Of a stretch of DNA of 53,076 bases, positions 2,032 to 16,341 are shown piece by piece (the first letter of the stretch is position 1; each line of letters opens with the position of its first letter). The stretch lies in the IMG/VR virus record IMGVR_UViG_3300048065_000485, positions 1-53,076 of that record; one strand, written 5' to 3'. The notes under the pieces were generated by a model. It was not told where the DNA came from, searched no databases, and was given only the letters and a program-made list of their open reading frames with translations. Position numbers and translations under genes: made by a program. This stretch comes from a virus (lineage: Duplodnaviria > Caudoviricetes).

Positions 2032-2355
2032 ATGAACAATTTAAAAAATGCGTTCTTAGGTATATTCTTTGTAATGTTTGCTCAAGGTTGTGCTACAGTT
2101 GGTACCGTAATCGATGGCGGACAAAAACTAGCCACAGATACACTTGATACTGTAACAGGTACAGCAAGTGGTATCGTTGGTTCAGTTGCAAATGATGTCG
2201 GTAGTGTAGTTCAAACTACAGCAGAAGTTGGAGTTGGATTAGTCCAAACTGCGGCTGATACCGGTGCAGGATTAGTACAAGTTGTTGCTGACGAAGTCAA
2301 CAATCAAACTGATGCTTTACAAGAAGAAGAACCAAAAGAAGAGCCAAAAAAGTAA
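2032..2355 (+). CDS. Lipoprotein with G/V/T/A-rich amphipathic repeats (short form)
   Basis: AAGGAG SD; signal peptide ending in a lipobox-like FAQG-C; about 11-aa G/V/T repeats; ends at A_AAA_AAG_TAA. Confidence 0.8.
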   Translation: MNNLKNAFLGIFFVMFAQGCATVGTVIDGGQKLATDTLDTVTGTASGIVGSVANDVGSVVQTTAEVGVGLVQTAADTGAGLVQVVADEVNNQTDALQEEEPKEEPKK

Positions 2356-2567
2356 CTAGCTCATTCTTTAAACCTTTTAAGTTTTTAAAACAGAACGAAA
2401 AACAAAAAGGTATAGACTCACCCTCGAAAGAGAGTGAGCAGGTAACTGAAGAGGATATTAAAGAACTTATATTGCAAAATAAAGTTCTAAAAGAGTTATT
2501 GAAAGATAAACTTTTAGAAGATGCAATTAAAGAATATTGCTCCAAGGTACCTGAAGACTGTGAATAG
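2346..2567 (+). other. Putative -1 programmed frameshift site plus 71-codon extension frame
   Basis: Heptamer A_AAA_AAG at 2346-2352; the -1 frame is open from 2352 to TAG 2565-2567 with no ATG; stem 2359-2369 pairs with 2429-2439. Confidence 0.7.
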
Positions 2568-3072
2568 ATTACTTTTCATCATAACATTAACATTTCCTCT
2601 GTTTTTAACGGCAGAGGAAATTGTTCTTAGTCCATCATACTTACCGGAAGGTAGTGTATTGGACCTTACCTATAATCCCCCACTAGATCCTTATTACTGT
2701 GATAATAATCCTGAACTTTGTAAAGTAATAGAAACTAGTGACATTCCAAAGTTTGATATGACTCCACGTGCTACTAATGGACAATGGATAGCATTTTGGA
2801 CGTTTCAGTTATTAGATGTATATTCAACATCACGAGCATTAAAGTACGATTGTGTAACAGAAATAAATCCGTTGTTTACAGAATCGCCTAGTGATGCTAG
2901 ATTGGTACTTACAAAAACACTTTTACTGGTACCTGGCTTAATGTACAACGATTACTGGAAAGAAGTCACACCTAACGAACTTAATGACACTAATATGGTG
3001 TACTCAATAGTTGTTGCAAATAACTTTAGATTACTTAACAAAGCCAAGCAGTATTGCAATAAAATACGATAA
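2560..3072 (+). CDS. Secreted or membrane hypothetical protein
   Basis: GTG at 2560 gives a clean signal peptide (MNRLLFIITLTFPLFLTA-EE) and overlaps the stop of the frameshift extension; C-terminal D-x-x-ST...E-x-NP pattern; the track start at 2521 is likely too long. Confidence 0.65.
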   Translation: MNRLLFIITLTFPLFLTAEEIVLSPSYLPEGSVLDLTYNPPLDPYYCDNNPELCKVIETSDIPKFDMTPRATNGQWIAFWTFQLLDVYSTSRALKYDCVTEINPLFTESPSDARLVLTKTLLLVPGLMYNDYWKEVTPNELNDTNMVYSIVVANNFRLLNKAKQYCNKIR

Positions 3073-3080: not shown

Positions 3081-5150
3081 ATGAAATGGTTATACAGCGG
3101 GTACGCAGTAGCAGTATCTATAGCATTGTTACTCGCATTAAGGGTATTCGATCCTACGCCTTTACAAAGCCTACGTGGTCAAGTATTTGACAGTTACCAA
3201 CAATTAGATGAAGTAGTACAAAGTGATGACGTTGTATTAATAAACATTGGCGAAAAAAGTTTAGCAAAATACGGACAGTATCCTTTCCCTAGACAATACT
3301 ATGCTCAAATGGTAGTAGACGTTGCTATGAAAAATGGCGGTGTTATGGGTTGGACAATAATGTTTCCAGAAGCAGATAGGTTTCAGGGAGATGAAAGTTT
3401 TGCAGGTATGATGAATCAGAACGTTATGAATGTTCCTGGTGCAAGAAAGAATCCTGTAAACTATAATGTATTAAGCCAAACACCAAGTGTAAAGGGTATA
3501 AAGTCAACAGGACCACATATAGGCACAGGCACAATAGGGCCTGTTCCAGCAAAAGATTATTTGCTTACTTGGCCCAACTTAGTTACTAATGTAGACAAGT
3601 TAGAATCAGCAAGTAATGGTAAAGGAGTAAATGCTTCAGCACCACAACCAGATAATCAAACAAGAACATATCCATTAGCAATTACAGTAGGTGATAAAAT
3701 ATATCCTAGTTTTGCTGTAGAAATGTTAAGGGTAAAAACAGGCAAACCTAGTTACATAATTAAAACATCAGAAATAGGAATACAGGAAGTTGCTGTTCCC
3801 CCATTTGACCCGATAGTAACGCAACCAAACGGAACAGCATATATAAGATTTAATAATGAATTTACTGAAATTGAATATGAGGGTGCAGAAAGCATTCCAG
3901 ACTTAGCAGGTAAATTTGTTATAGTAGGTGTTACAGCAGAAGGTATTGCTAACCCTGTGCCTACACCTAAAGGAAACTTATATCCTCAACAGATACAAGC
4001 ACACATGCTACAGAACTTTATAGATGGTAGTAATATAACAAGGAGTCAGTTAAGTGCTGTCATAGAGCTTCTAGTAGGGTTACTGACTATGGTTCTTGTT
4101 GCTTTAGCAGTATATAGATTACCATTGCTTTTAACAGCACCTATGGCTTTAGCAGTATTAGGTGGTATAGCATACTTTAGTGTTTACAAATATACTAGTA
4201 GTTTGGTATTATTAGATGCAACTTTCCCTGTATTAAGTGGATTTTTAGTATTTACACAGGCGGCATTTAATAACTTTTACAAGCAGTTTAAATTACGTGA
4301 ACAAATTAAGAAACAATTCGAACATTACCTTGCTCCAGCAATGGTTAAAAAATTACAGAAAGATCCAAGTTTATTACGTTTAGGTGGAGATACAAAAACA
4401 ATGACATATCTATTTTCAGATATTAGAGGTTTCACACCGATATCAGAACAGTTTAAAACAGATCCACAAGGTTTAGGTAAACTTATAAACAGATATATGA
4501 CACCAATGACTGACCTCGTTATGCAGAAAGAGGGAACAATAGACAAATACATAGGTGATGCCTTAATGGCAATTTGGGGAGCACCACTTGATATAGAAAA
4601 TCATGCTCAGTTGGCAATAGAAACAGCACAAGAAATGGAAGTAGAATTAGCAAAATTAAACAAAGAACTAAAAGCAGACGGACTTATGGAGTTAGGTGTT
4701 GGTATAGGCATAAACACAGGTGATGCAGTAGTAGGTAACATGGGCTCAGATCAACGATTCGATTATACAGTATTAGGCGATAGTGTAAATTTAGCGGCAC
4801 GTTTAGAAGCACAAACAAAAGAGTATGGTGTATTCTTTATGTTTACTGAACACACTCTTAAGGAAATTACAGCACCTGAAAATTTAGTGATGTTAGATAA
4901 AATTGCTGTAAAAGGACAAACAGCACCAGTTACAATTTATACTATTTTAAAAGATCATAAAGAAGCAAGAGTTATTAACAGAATGGTAGATGCATATCAA
5001 AACAGAGAATGGAGTACAGTTGCACATCAAATAGAAATTATTAATCAGCATAACTGGAATTCTGTATTAGCAGAATTATATGGTCAAAGAATTAAACAGC
5101 CTATGCCTAAAGGCGAATGGGACGGAGTTGAACGTAAAACAACTAAATAG
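3081..5150 (+). CDS. CHASE2-domain class III adenylate cyclase
   Basis: N-terminal TM, CHASE2-like region (GQYPFPR, FVIVG), three TMs, then cyclase motifs FSDIRGFT, IDKYIGDALM, GIGINTG, FDYTVLGDSVNLAARLE. Confidence 0.93.
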   Translation: MKWLYSGYAVAVSIALLLALRVFDPTPLQSLRGQVFDSYQQLDEVVQSDDVVLINIGEKSLAKYGQYPFPRQYYAQMVVDVAMKNGGVMGWTIMFPEADRFQGDESFAGMMNQNVMNVPGARKNPVNYNVLSQTPSVKGIKSTGPHIGTGTIGPVPAKDYLLTWPNLVTNVDKLESASNGKGVNASAPQPDNQTRTYPLAITVGDKIYPSFAVEMLRVKTGKPSYIIKTSEIGIQEVAVPPFDPIVTQPNGTAYIRFNNEFTEIEYEGAESIPDLAGKFVIVGVTAEGIANPVPTPKGNLYPQQIQAHMLQNFIDGSNITRSQLSAVIELLVGLLTMVLVALAVYRLPLLLTAPMALAVLGGIAYFSVYKYTSSLVLLDATFPVLSGFLVFTQAAFNNFYKQFKLREQIKKQFEHYLAPAMVKKLQKDPSLLRLGGDTKTMTYLFSDIRGFTPISEQFKTDPQGLGKLINRYMTPMTDLVMQKEGTIDKYIGDALMAIWGAPLDIENHAQLAIETAQEMEVELAKLNKELKADGLMELGVGIGINTGDAVVGNMGSDQRFDYTVLGDSVNLAARLEAQTKEYGVFFMFTEHTLKEITAPENLVMLDKIAVKGQTAPVTIYTILKDHKEARVINRMVDAYQNREWSTVAHQIEIINQHNWNSVLAELYGQRIKQPMPKGEWDGVERKTTK

Positions 5151-9043: not shown

Positions 9044-9133
9044 GGAAAGGTGGCTGAGTGGCTTAAAGCACTTCCCTGCTAAGGAAGAGTACGGGTAACT
9101 GTACCGAGAGTTCGAATCTCTCCCTTTCCGCCA
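9044..9133 (+). tRNA. trnS: tRNA-Ser (anticodon GCT)
   Basis: Acceptor stem GGAAAGG/CCTTTCC, anticodon arm CTTCC-CTGCTAA-GGAAG, long variable arm, T arm GAGAG-TTCGAAT-CTCTC, discriminator G and encoded CCA. Confidence 0.97.
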
Positions 9134-13528: not shown

Positions 13529-14485
13529 ATGAGAATATTTATAACAGGAGCAGACGGTTTTATAGGTCAGCACATGGTTGAACGATTAAAAGACAAACAC
13601 GAACTAGAATTTTTAAAAGAAGATTTAAGAGACCATGCCAAGGTTGCCATGCAGATCTCAACTTTTGATCCTGAGATAATTGTTCATTTGGCGGCAAGAA
13701 CAGAAGTACAGGACAGTTTTTATGAACAAATAACTTTTAGCGAAGTAAATTACGTTGGTACTGTAAATTTAATTGAAATTGCGGCAACACTACCTAATTT
13801 GAAAAATTTTGTATTTGCAAGTACAATGGAAGTATATGGTTGGCAACCTATAAGTGATTTGATTAGAGACGGAAAAGAAGAAGGAATAATTGCATTTAAT
13901 GAAGCAACACCTCCGAATCCAAATGCCCCCTACGCCGTTGCAAAGTATGGCTGTGAAAAATACTTAGAGTATGCTCATAGAAGTTATGGATTACCTTTTA
14001 CTGCTATTAGACAAACAAATGCATACGGTAGAAAGGACAATGACTTTTTTGTAACAGAACAAATTATTACACAAATGTTAAAAAATCCAGATGAGATTAA
14101 CTTAGGATATGGCGAGCCATACAGAAACTTTATTTACATTGATGATTTATTAGATGCATGGGAAACAGTAATAACAAATCCTGATAAGTGTGCTGGTGAA
14201 ATATTCTGTATAGGACCAGACAATGCAATTAAAATAAAGGACTATGTGCAACTCATTGCAGATAAACTTGAATGGAAAGGTCATGTAAATTGGAATACTA
14301 AACCTCCAAGACCAGGTGAAATTTATTTACTTAATAGTACTAATCATAAAATTACAACAAGATTAGGTTGGTTCCCTAAAGTAGAATTAAGTGAAGGACT
14401 AGATAGAACTATTGCTGTCTGGAAAGATGTTTTAGAAAATAATTTGCCACATAATCAGGACAGAAGATTTTCTAAAGGAAAATAA
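13529..14485 (+). CDS. NAD-dependent NDP-sugar epimerase/dehydratase
   Basis: ITGADGFIG, HLAA, ST.EVYG, YAVAK (YxxxK), RNFIYIDD. Confidence 0.92.
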   Translation: MRIFITGADGFIGQHMVERLKDKHELEFLKEDLRDHAKVAMQISTFDPEIIVHLAARTEVQDSFYEQITFSEVNYVGTVNLIEIAATLPNLKNFVFASTMEVYGWQPISDLIRDGKEEGIIAFNEATPPNPNAPYAVAKYGCEKYLEYAHRSYGLPFTAIRQTNAYGRKDNDFFVTEQIITQMLKNPDEINLGYGEPYRNFIYIDDLLDAWETVITNPDKCAGEIFCIGPDNAIKIKDYVQLIADKLEWKGHVNWNTKPPRPGEIYLLNSTNHKITTRLGWFPKVELSEGLDRTIAVWKDVLENNLPHNQDRRFSKGK

Positions 14486-16341
14486 TGTTTAACATTACTT
14501 TAGTTCAGCCTAATTTTCAGACTGGGCCTAAGCATCTTAATAGTTATTATTTGCCTTATAGTGTTGGTTCCTTATGGAGTTATTTACTACAACATTCTCA
14601 AATAGAAGAAAATTATCAAGTAGATAATTGGATATTTAGACGAGAAACATTACAAGATGTAGTAGATAGATGTAAAAATACAGATATAGTTTTTATAAGT
14701 TTATACATTTGGAATAAAAATTATTGCCTTATGTTAGGTAAAATTTTAAAAGAAGCCTATCCAAATATTAAAATTATTTTAGGCGGCCCTGAAGTACCTC
14801 ATAGAAATCCAAATTTTTTAAAAGACAATGATTATATTGATTCTATAGTAATCGGAGAAGGCGAGTTAGCAGTATTAGATATACTTACTGCTTATTTAGA
14901 TGAAAAACCCTTAGAGCAAGTGTATGAATACGAGAGGATAAAGGATTTAAACTTACCTAGTCCTTATACACTAGGATTGTTTGACGATCTTTTAAAACAA
15001 CACCCAGATATAGAATGGGTTCCAACATTAGAAACAGATAGAGGATGCCCTTACAGTTGTACTTTTTGTGATTGGGGAAGTGCCACAGCAAGTAAAATGT
15101 ATAAATTATATGACGATAGAATACTTGCAGATCTTCAATGGGTAGCAGATAATAAATTACCTTACCTAGCATTAACATCTAGTAATTTTGGAATCTTTAA
15201 GGATAGAGATTTGATGATAACAGATATGATTGTTAAAACAACTAAAGAAACAGGTTACCCAAAAGGCATTAGTGTAAGTTATGCAAAAAACAGTAATGAT
15301 ACTGTATTAGAAATTGTTAAAAAATTTATAGATGTGAATATACAAACAGGAATAACTTTGAGTTTACAAACAACAACTGAAGAAGTTTTAGAGAATATTA
15401 AACGTAAAAATATGAAAATTAATTCTATTGATGAAATCATAGGATCTGCAAAAGAAAAAAATGTTCCTGCCCTAACAGAATTAATATTAGGCATGCCAGG
15501 TGAAACTGTGGAATCATGGAAGTCTACTTTAGAACAAATATTAATAAATGAAATACCAACATTAGATGTTTACTTTTTACAACTATTAGTAAACTCTCCA
15601 ATGTATGTAAAACAAATACAAGAATATGATTTAAAAACATTTTATGCATATGACTTTTTCTATGGTGTACAGAACGAAAAATTTGAATACGATAAAAAAC
15701 ATAAGATATCGGAATCTATAGAAGTTATAAAAAGCACAAATACAATATCAGAAAAAGAAATGGCAGATGTATCTTTGTTTACTGTTTTTGTATTAGGATT
15801 TCAAATGTTTGGATTATCAAATATTATGTCTACTCATTTAAATAAAACACAAGGATTGTCTTATATAAAGTTCTATGAAGGTCTATACGAATATCTTATT
15901 GAAAACGATACTAATATTAATATATGGCTAGAAAAGTTACAAAAGGGTTTTATAGATTGGAAAAAAACAGGTTATATGGATACAAACATAGATGGAGTAC
16001 ATATAGAAGGTTGGAAATTTTTCCATTCCTTAATGCCAATCATTCAACAGAATAATTTAGTATCACATTATATAGATCTTGTTGCAGATTATTCTAAACA
16101 ATTTACAACATCTGATATTATAGAAGATTTTGTAAAAGTATCAAATTTACAAATTAAACAATTTGACTCACAAATACACGAATCTCTCCAGGTTACAGTC
16201 AAAAGTAACCTTTTTCCTGCAAATTTAATTATTTCTGATAGATACGGAGACTACTTGGCAGAAAAAGAAGAACACTTAGATATGCTCTTTTTTGGAAGAC
16301 GTAGAGGATGGCACCTTAATAAAATAAGTCTTGACAAATAA
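14485..16341 (+). CDS. B12-binding radical SAM enzyme
   Basis: Cobalamin-binding domain (SLYIWN, ILGGPE, IGEGE) plus RGCPYSCTFCDW (CxxxCxxC) and LILGMPGET. Confidence 0.9.
   Translation: MFNITLVQPNFQTGPKHLNSYYLPYSVGSLWSYLLQHSQIEENYQVDNWIFRRETLQDVVDRCKNTDIVFISLYIWNKNYCLMLGKILKEAYPNIKIILGGPEVPHRNPNFLKDNDYIDSIVIGEGELAVLDILTAYLDEKPLEQVYEYERIKDLNLPSPYTLGLFDDLLKQHPDIEWVPTLETDRGCPYSCTFCDWGSATASKMYKLYDDRILADLQWVADNKLPYLALTSSNFGIFKDRDLMITDMIVKTTKETGYPKGISVSYAKNSNDTVLEIVKKFIDVNIQTGITLSLQTTTEEVLENIKRKNMKINSIDEIIGSAKEKNVPALTELILGMPGETVESWKSTLEQILINEIPTLDVYFLQLLVNSPMYVKQIQEYDLKTFYAYDFFYGVQNEKFEYDKKHKISESIEVIKSTNTISEKEMADVSLFTVFVLGFQMFGLSNIMSTHLNKTQGLSYIKFYEGLYEYLIENDTNINIWLEKLQKGFIDWKKTGYMDTNIDGVHIEGWKFFHSLMPIIQQNNLVSHYIDLVADYSKQFTTSDIIEDFVKVSNLQIKQFDSQIHESLQVTVKSNLFPANLIISDRYGDYLAEKEEHLDMLFFGRRRGWHLNKISLDK

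Follow-up and report, generated by a model that had tools for sequence, protein, structure and literature searches.

How is a conserved protein segment translated when its reading frame offers no start codon? The question is raised by the stretch from 2032 to 2567 of IMG/VR virus record IMGVR_UViG_3300048065_000485 (Duplodnaviria; Caudoviricetes), whose positions 1 to 53,076 were analysed here and are referred to as the window. A phage gene predicted to encode a lipoprotein ends there at a run of adenines, and the apparent gap before the next gene is filled by an open frame shifted by −1. Judging from the site and its relatives, the end of this gene very probably carries a programmed −1 ribosomal frameshift site, through which a 107-residue and a 178-residue lipoprotein would be made. 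The initial annotation had proposed these two products, and conservation of the heptamer, the stop, the open frame and a downstream stem supports the proposal.

The lipoprotein open reading frame (ORF; 2032–2355, + strand, delimited by the ORF list and by homologue alignment) comprises 107 codons, signal peptide included, and 5 nucleotides ahead of its ATG stands a strong Shine–Dalgarno-like AAGGAG (2021–2026, +), read from the sequence. At its end, positions 2340–2355 read GAG CCA AAA AAG TAA in the frame of ATG 2032. The slippery heptamer A_AAA_AAG (2346–2352, +), in X_XXY_YYZ phase as judged from the sequence and from conservation across relatives, is abutted by the zero-frame stop TAA (2353–2355, +), itself the first half of a 6-nucleotide spacer (2353–2358). 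Preceding the heptamer is a purine-rich GAAGAG with no clear GGAGG by eye; positions −12 to −10 are conserved at 88–91%.

Read from 2352, the −1 frame gives VTSSFFKPFKFLKQNEKQKGIDSPSKESEQVTEEDIKELILQNKVLKELLKDKLLEDAIKEYCSKVPEDCE (VTSSFFKPFKF...EYCSKVPEDCE*), an extension of 71 codons and a TAG at 2565–2567 (2352–2567, +) that consists of a linker, a helix and a C-terminal YCSKVPEDC loop (2535–2561). The frame is open from stop to stop between 2313 and 2567; its earliest ATG, GTG or TTG is the TTG at 2472, the 41st codon past the junction, and by eye the extension is preceded by no Shine–Dalgarno-like motif. The end of the extension overlaps a GTG (2560–2562) that is in frame with the next ORF. 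The heptamer lying in frame directly before the stop, the 71 open codons lacking an ATG and the overlap with the next gene's GTG had all been claimed in the initial annotation, and all hold when the sequence and the ORF frames are checked.

What exceeds chance at this site is its conservation across relatives, not the window sequence by itself. A lipoprotein query yielded 16 viral-contig loci, a query with the neighbouring cyclase gene yielded 244, of which 80 were kept, and a lipoprotein alignment yielded 468 metagenome relatives, of which the best 80 were kept. The resulting pool holds 177 sequences (96 viral-contig loci, 80 metagenome loci and the window). Lipoprotein matches on the + strand were retained and identical 260-nucleotide junction regions collapsed, giving 78 distinct junctions; five further junctions had too little downstream sequence and are not among the 78, and loci with no lipoprotein match, mostly truncated upstream of the cyclase, stand outside the count.

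An in-phase slippery heptamer followed by a −1 extension is present in 67 of the 78 junctions. In 48 of them the pattern is N-NA AAA AAG and a stop, in 17 one sense codon (GAC, GAT or GGA) separates A_AAA_AAG from the stop, and in two the junction is GAG GGA AAG and a stop, with heptamer G_GGA_AAG; A_AAA_AAG thus accounts for 65 and the stop directly follows the heptamer in 50. The remaining 11 read GAA AAG AAG TAA/TAG and have their extension in the +1 frame. In all 78 the frame runs open from the junction as far as a [YF]CxxxPxxC motif, and none joins lipoprotein and extension in frame. Throughout the −1 class the extension frame is open for 33–74 codons past the junction and closes 2–19 codons upstream of it, and 63 of the 67 have no ATG, GTG or TTG from the upstream stop to codon +10; the exceptions are a GTG at +9 in two loci and a TTG at +4 in two others. 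The initial annotation had named conservation of heptamer, stop and −1 frame in homologues as a check, and these features are retained in the 67.

The constraint extends to single bases. Each of the last four heptamer bases carries 2.0 bits of information, each of the first three 1.81. The codon whose third base opens the heptamer varies (CCA 36, GAA 14, GCA 7, TCA 6, ACA 2, GAG 2) and specifies Pro, Glu, Ala, Ser or Thr, while that third base is always the one that the heptamer needs: A, or G where GGA AAG follows. All 67 junctions of the −1 class have AAG as their last lysine codon, whereas in 11 large ORFs of the window AAA is counted 324 times and AAG 80. Because the protein tail varies while the heptamer is fixed, and because the minor lysine codon is invariably used, the heptamer bases appear to be selected for slippage; the constraint matches what such selection would leave, not selection on the protein tail.

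Downstream of the slip site is a predicted stimulatory RNA structure (2359–2439, +), composed of a closing stem (2359–2369/2429–2439) that encloses a hairpin (2372–2378/2405–2411) and a 3′ hairpin. Beginning 6 nucleotides past the heptamer, the stem pairs GCTCATTCTTT with AGAGAGTGAGC through 11 base pairs, two of them G-U. In a 93-nucleotide context it is the closing stem of the minimum free energy (MFE) fold, and the helix 2372–2378/2405–2411 forms within it. For 25 sequences of the window's type, RNAalifold returns exactly these 11 pairs (columns 14–24 with 96–106). Of the alignment cells of the stem 99.2% are paired, compared with 50–64% when the 3′ partners are slid by 1–3 columns, and none of 500 shuffles matched the observed paired percentage or covariation score. 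Compensatory changes occur in two stem pairs, C-G to U-A (L053/L061) and U-A to A-U (L040/L043), and the nucleotides of the 5′ arm GCTCATTCT are conserved. Both the stem and the enclosed helix had been drawn in the initial annotation; the consensus fold and the compensatory changes bear out the former, the MFE fold of the 93-nucleotide context the latter.

Other branches of the family have different stems at the same 6-nucleotide spacing: CCTTCTTA/TAAGAAGG in L046, L051 and L057; GCCATTC/GAATGGC in L069; GCCT-GTTCTCC/GGAGAG-AAGGC in L072; CCTTTTCTCT/AGAGAAAAGG in L086 and L088, where it lies behind G_GGA_AAG; and GATCACTCTT/GGGTGATC in the L029 type, within which GATCGCTCT pairs with GGGCGGTC, an A-U to G-C exchange. 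We regard this recurrence of unrelated stems at one spacing in divergent clades as more telling than the covariation of individual pairs. In long-context folds of the window GAGC (2341–2344) can also pair with GCTC (2359–2362), which places the heptamer in a 14-nucleotide loop; this upstream arm is not conserved in relatives with GAA before the heptamer.

Several observations weigh against the frameshift site. AAAAAAG occurs 33 times in the window where 35.2 occurrences are expected, that is, the heptamer alone is at chance level. When the window is folded alone in a 128-nucleotide context, the pair probability of the stem is about 0.03; an alternative fold is favoured (−24.8 versus −21.4 kcal/mol) and the 11-base-pair stem is not dominant. 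Given the chance frequency of the heptamer and this low pair probability, the window sequence alone proves little. The alternative MFE fold pairs the 5′ arm with the EDIKEL codons; as relatives differ at those codons, it was discarded as a candidate for the conserved structure. Six of the 11 stem pairs never vary, and as the stem is mostly invariant the covariation support rests on few pairs; in L110 the 5′ arm is degraded. The loci are kin to one another, so that their counts are not counts of independent events, and the 11 junctions of the +1 class are left unexplained by a −1 shift.

The lipoprotein begins with MNNLKNAFLGIFFVMFAQGC, which we take to be a lipoprotein signal by the lipobox rule, on our own reading. 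Its Cys20 codon (2089–2091) lies within a conserved ...F-A-Q-G-C-A-T; the cysteine is invariant in all 14 aligned sequences, and divergent members have LLPSC, MTSC or ITSC. We read the product as a predicted bacterial lipoprotein, a substrate of signal peptidase II, so that the label given in the initial annotation keeps the backing of the invariant cysteine and of a lipobox-like N terminus, and depends on that reading of the lipobox. The mature protein is built of hendecad (11-residue) repeats followed by an acidic, lysine-containing tail: self-similarity peaks at lags of 11 (z 4.4), 22, 7 and 18, and an 11-residue indel separates relatives. The C-terminal tail varies among relatives in both sequence and length. 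Homologues form 38 database protein clusters, all unnamed and 84–124 residues long, of which those of 121 and 124 residues have an unrelated tail or N-terminal extension; no homologue of 189 residues or more was found. Neither lipoprotein nor extension has a family in Pfam, PHROGs or NCBIfam, and the ESM Atlas returned viral hypothetical clusters only. An AlphaFold model of the lipoprotein was unusable (predicted local distance difference test, pLDDT, 45.6), and a weak NAP match (E 0.0034, below the family cut-off) was dropped as not significant.

The extension has the substitution pattern of a protein over part of its length. Variable sites at first, second and third codon positions number 40/27/52 overall and 22/12/33 in the C-terminal half, which points to coding constraint on that half. 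The first 30 columns give 18/15/19, and for that reason the N-terminal third is seen as a linker under loose constraint, whose RNA serves at the same time as the stem. Residues Y62, C63, P67 and C70 are invariant in all 19 aligned extensions. AlphaFold predicts a single helix at residues 33–65 and no secondary structure elsewhere, with a mean pLDDT of 70.3 (76–85 over residues 31–70). Of the coiled coil suggested in the initial annotation the helix is thus retained; a coiled coil is a possibility. The extension has no signal peptide of its own.

A profile of the 19 extensions, searched against 1.84 billion representative proteins, returned 13 matches of 29–144 residues, all of which are fragments or were called at contig edges or from internal starts; no lipoprotein joined to an extension, about 178 residues in all, is among them. 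In one match (P0042, 88 residues) the first 56 residues of a lipoprotein are joined in frame to the last 32 of an extension, which fits lipoprotein and extension belonging together yet deserves little weight, because P0040, P0043 and P0045 join unrelated N termini. In these three the C-terminal half of the extension is attached to a RibF-like start, a protein-kinase-like start and the start of the homologue of window ORF 830–1144; such joins suggest deletions or chimeric assemblies in a hypervariable region. A bacterial-looking protein of 144 residues (P0050) carries three copies of the motif behind what we read as an apparent signal peptide. It matches CP12 (PF02672) at E 0.16, the sole CP12 match, the window extension giving none. 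In a profile search of the PDB the best E value was 0.27, and CP12 chains are absent from the matches at E up to 10. Hints of a CP12-like cysteine loop and of a hemophore in P0050 were dropped as not significant.

How the site would work can be set out from these features. Ribosomes translating CCA AAA AAG, with lysine transfer RNAs (tRNAs) on AAA and AAG, would meet the zero-frame stop and, 6 nucleotides downstream, the stem. A fraction would re-pair one base back on A_AAA_AAG and resume in the −1 frame, where GTA (Val) comes first; both the adjacent stop and the stem would raise the yield. The products would be a 107-residue precursor ending at TAA and a 178-residue precursor with the junction ...EEPKK-VTSSFFK. 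Both would share the signal peptide, the lipid-anchor cysteine and the hendecad-repeat body, and the long form would add the flexible linker, the long helix and the YCxxxPxxC loop. Since the extension has neither a start codon nor a signal peptide, the shift would be its only route to translation and, via the lipoprotein signal, to the cell envelope, where it would be tethered to a lipid anchor, short and long forms being made at a set ratio. We infer slippage on the ribosome, its efficiency, lipidation, export and any role together with the neighbouring curlin-repeat, membrane and CHASE2-cyclase genes from sequence. A_AAA_AAG is described in passages of a 2016 review as the most shift-prone heptamer in Escherichia coli and as the site of dnaX (Atkins et al. 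2016, PMC5009743), where about half of bacteria are also said to have a single lysine tRNA serving both codons.

The same fusion protein, indistinguishable from that of a ribosomal shift, could come from transcriptional slippage, with RNA polymerase adding one A in the run of six. Review text treats poly-A sites as prone to both kinds of slippage, but cites transcriptional realignment for runs of more than 7 A or more than 8 T, by which measure six is short (PMC3711429). The two relatives with G_GGA_AAG have only three A and still present a perfect tandem-slippage heptamer, which misfits slippage by the polymerase, and the conserved codon phase, the stop within one codon and the 6-nucleotide stem spacing are features of ribosomal, not polymerase, slippage; we consider this origin improbable. 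A frame break caused by an assembly or sequencing indel, the true gene being one continuous ORF of 178 codons, was a danger that the initial annotation had itself raised, homopolymer runs being error-prone. It is excluded in practice by the many independent assemblies, as the break is present in all 78 distinct junctions and in none is the frame continuous; the 38 protein clusters contain no homologue of fused length, and variants in which the heptamer differs, or an extra codon precedes the stop, keep the offset. That the break is an artefact is, on this evidence, extremely improbable.

Could the extension instead be a separate small gene that merely abuts the lipoprotein gene and is read from its own, perhaps non-canonical or internal, start? 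Ten of the 11 loci of the +1 class do carry some ATG, GTG or TTG in the upstream overlap, a gene caller made a 79-residue protein from one of them (P0039), and a 49-residue database protein (P0041) begins with M at the SFFK position. The candidate starts of the +1 class are nevertheless non-homologous and accompanied by no visible Shine–Dalgarno sequence in the four loci inspected, while the start-less stretch in 63 of the 67 −1 junctions and the closure of the frame 2–19 codons upstream exclude an own start, as far as sequence can tell, for most loci. A separate gene would also leave the invariant in-phase heptamer and the fixed frame offset unexplained, and its product would have no signal peptide, although the cysteine motif elsewhere follows what we read as apparent signal or membrane segments; we hold this explanation to be decidedly improbable. 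It is very improbable, finally, that the downstream frame is untranslated and its conservation that of an RNA element, a terminator or regulatory hairpin between two genes. The nucleotide-level conservation of the 5′ arm and the small third-position excess in the first 30 extension codons would suit such an element, but the frame stays open for at least 33 codons in every −1 junction in DNA of 33% G+C, and the C-terminal half shows a coding pattern and an invariant Y-C-P-C. No T-run follows the stem, a terminator scan reported none there on the + strand, and an Rfam search of 2200–2700 gave four chance-level matches (E 4.8–8) and no frameshift element.

Programmed −1 frameshifting remains the reading that we prefer for the 67 junctions of the window's class; the 11 others cannot use a −1 shift, because their extension lies in the +1 frame. 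Their junction is an invariant GAAAAGAAGTAR (GAA AAG AAG TAR), followed by the same stem behind a 5-nucleotide spacer. In the four loci inspected the −1 frame shuts after six codons. The start codons that ten of the 11 carry in the upstream overlap (17–34 codons long) stand at non-homologous positions, and L039 has none. One conceivable route is a −2 shift, in which the P-site tRNA would leave AAG for AAA and its A-site neighbour, also on AAG, would re-pair with AGA through a central G-U pair; another is a +1 shift at the stop codon. This clade may use −2 or +1 recoding, or internal initiation. Text from one study places optimal −2 frameshifting at spacers 1–2 nucleotides shorter than for −1 (PMC3458567), and on that ground the 5-nucleotide spacer fits a −2 shift. 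In a quick tree the +1 class falls at two or more positions, and the lipoprotein and extension types look recombined. It is possible, though on the doubtful side, that in one family with one stem the direction of recoding has switched: −1 sites with a 6-nucleotide spacer and −2 or +1-at-stop sites with a 5-nucleotide spacer would be of common descent, and both would serve to attach a signal-less periplasmic module, a helix plus a cysteine loop, to a lipid anchor in a constant sub-stoichiometric proportion, as part of an envelope and cyclic-nucleotide signalling block of the phage.

Among known systems the E. coli dnaX gene (tau/gamma) is similar in its identical heptamer, in a stem-loop a few nucleotides downstream and in two products with a common N terminus, as described in parts of two reviews (PMC5009743, PMC3711429). 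The dnaX shift truncates the protein at an early −1 stop, whereas that of the lipoprotein gene would extend it by 71 residues; dnaX has an upstream Shine–Dalgarno-like stimulator, none being clear by eye at the lipoprotein site, and no sequence or Rfam relationship connects the two. Phage T7 capsid gene 10A/10B makes a minor, C-terminally extended form by shifting −1 shortly before the ORF ends. The lipoprotein gene is like it in having the slip site in the last codons and a longer isoform that would share the whole short body, and unlike it in heptamer, in protein (capsid versus envelope lipoprotein) and in phage group.

In the tail assembly chaperones the frameshift is reportedly conserved despite sequence divergence and occasionally takes another direction, as Xu et al. 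are said to have described in 2004. Family-wide conservation of the G/GT frameshift despite divergence also figures in the PRFect paper (PMC10885494), and the lipoprotein gene shares this property. It differs from G/GT in its lipoprotein signal and in its location, which is an envelope and signalling block and not the interval between tail tube and tape-measure genes; no chaperone match was found in Pfam or PHROGs, and the neighbours are membrane proteins and a CHASE2 cyclase. A heptamer of the A_AAA_AAG type and a 3′ structure yield the orfA–orfB fusion protein of the IS3 family. IS3 is listed among frameshifted genes in the same source (PMC10885494). Its product is a transposase and its frames overlap at length, while in the lipoprotein gene the −1 frame is open only 2–19 codons upstream and the protein is one predicted to be exported. 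The mechanism is thus known, of the dnaX, IS3 and T7 gene 10 type. The gene family is new, and neither it nor its lipoprotein setting or its range of junction variants appears in the papers searched. No frameshifted phage lipoprotein was found in the full-text literature, where supplementary tables of frameshift surveys could list one, and the word 'lipoprotein' is absent from the excerpted text of the 2016 recoding review (PMC5009743).

The source of the window is an uncultured marine giant (jumbo-type) phage. The record is estimated to be 14% complete, with a G+C content of 29–37% in 2-kilobase windows, and Pfam and PHROGs scans identify a T4 gp15-like tail sheath stabiliser, a tail sheath protein and a NUDIX hydrolase. 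The nearest relative of the gp15-like protein is that of Pseudomonas jumbo phage PA5oct (38.5% identity), followed by other jumbo phages, and relative L040 is 250,519 bases long. Cultured phage records gave no match to the region by blastn, nor to the lipoprotein or extension by tblastn, and representative bacterial and archaeal genomes gave no close relative. The only tRNA gene is a tRNA-Ser (GCU; 9044–9133, +); with no lysine tRNA gene in the window, decoding at the slip site presumably relies on a lysine tRNA of the host. Amid the structural genes are NAD-dependent epimerase/dehydratase and B12-binding radical SAM genes (13529–16341, +).

Flanking the lipoprotein gene are genes for a curlin-repeat protein (3–830), small membrane proteins, a membrane protein and a CHASE2 adenylate/guanylate cyclase (3081–5150). 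The cyclase shares 36.6% identity with its counterpart in Pelagibacter phage HTVC008M and 34.7% with those of the Methylophilales Melnitz phages, which in both cases follow csgG and curlin-repeat genes, and FecR as well in Melnitz; a FecR protein is also encoded upstream in relative L040 (668–1837). This jumbo-type phage thus bears, around its lipoprotein gene, a variant of the unexplained curli cluster of pelagimyophages. Curli-related clusters of pelagimyophages are in print, and their function is called a mystery there (PMC7029224); the main text of that paper contains neither 'lipoprotein' nor 'frameshift'. CsgG was not found in the 53-kilobase record, an absence that carries little meaning because the record is only 14% complete. 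Two overlapping small ORFs (1364–1666 and 1644–1964, +; 100 and 106 residues) look like tandem paralogues: both start with ...YTNSL(K/R)xY..A.(A/V)SVH..A.G, are hydrophobic and have no family match.

The next gene (2521–3072, +, from the ORF list) starts at ATG 2521 or GTG 2560, overlapping the end of the extension, and has a weak DUF5658 match. Translated in six frames, the window has just two occurrences of C-x-x-[N/H/V]-P-x-x-C: one lies at the extension's end (2538–2561), the other in the product of this gene, where it reads YYCDNNPELC (YCxxNPxxC at 2698–2724) and follows an N-terminal hydrophobic segment; this second copy is present in 12 of 21 relatives examined. Within the region encoding the signal peptide of the next gene is a 12-base-pair hairpin (ATTTCCTCTG...CAGAGGAAAT; 2592–2621, +) followed by TGTTCTTAGT. 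It scored as terminator-like, three such hairpins being found in the region where 0.4 are expected.

Gene callers turn the locus into a 107-residue hypothetical protein with what looks like a gap behind it; the short form alone is called in all 38 homologues, and no annotation assigns the extension to the gene. Recognising the frameshift recovers a conserved module that is invisible in the annotation of abundant uncultured marine phages, and brings an envelope lipoprotein into the small set of phage gene classes whose recoding is conserved. The natural series of sites combines two heptamers and two stop positions with five or more unrelated stems at one spacing and, possibly, a −2/+1 derivative, and offers material for relating spacing and structure to the direction of frameshifting. 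The shared YCxxNPxxC motif ties the lipoprotein to the next gene and provides an entry point to the function of the curlin-repeat/cyclase block.

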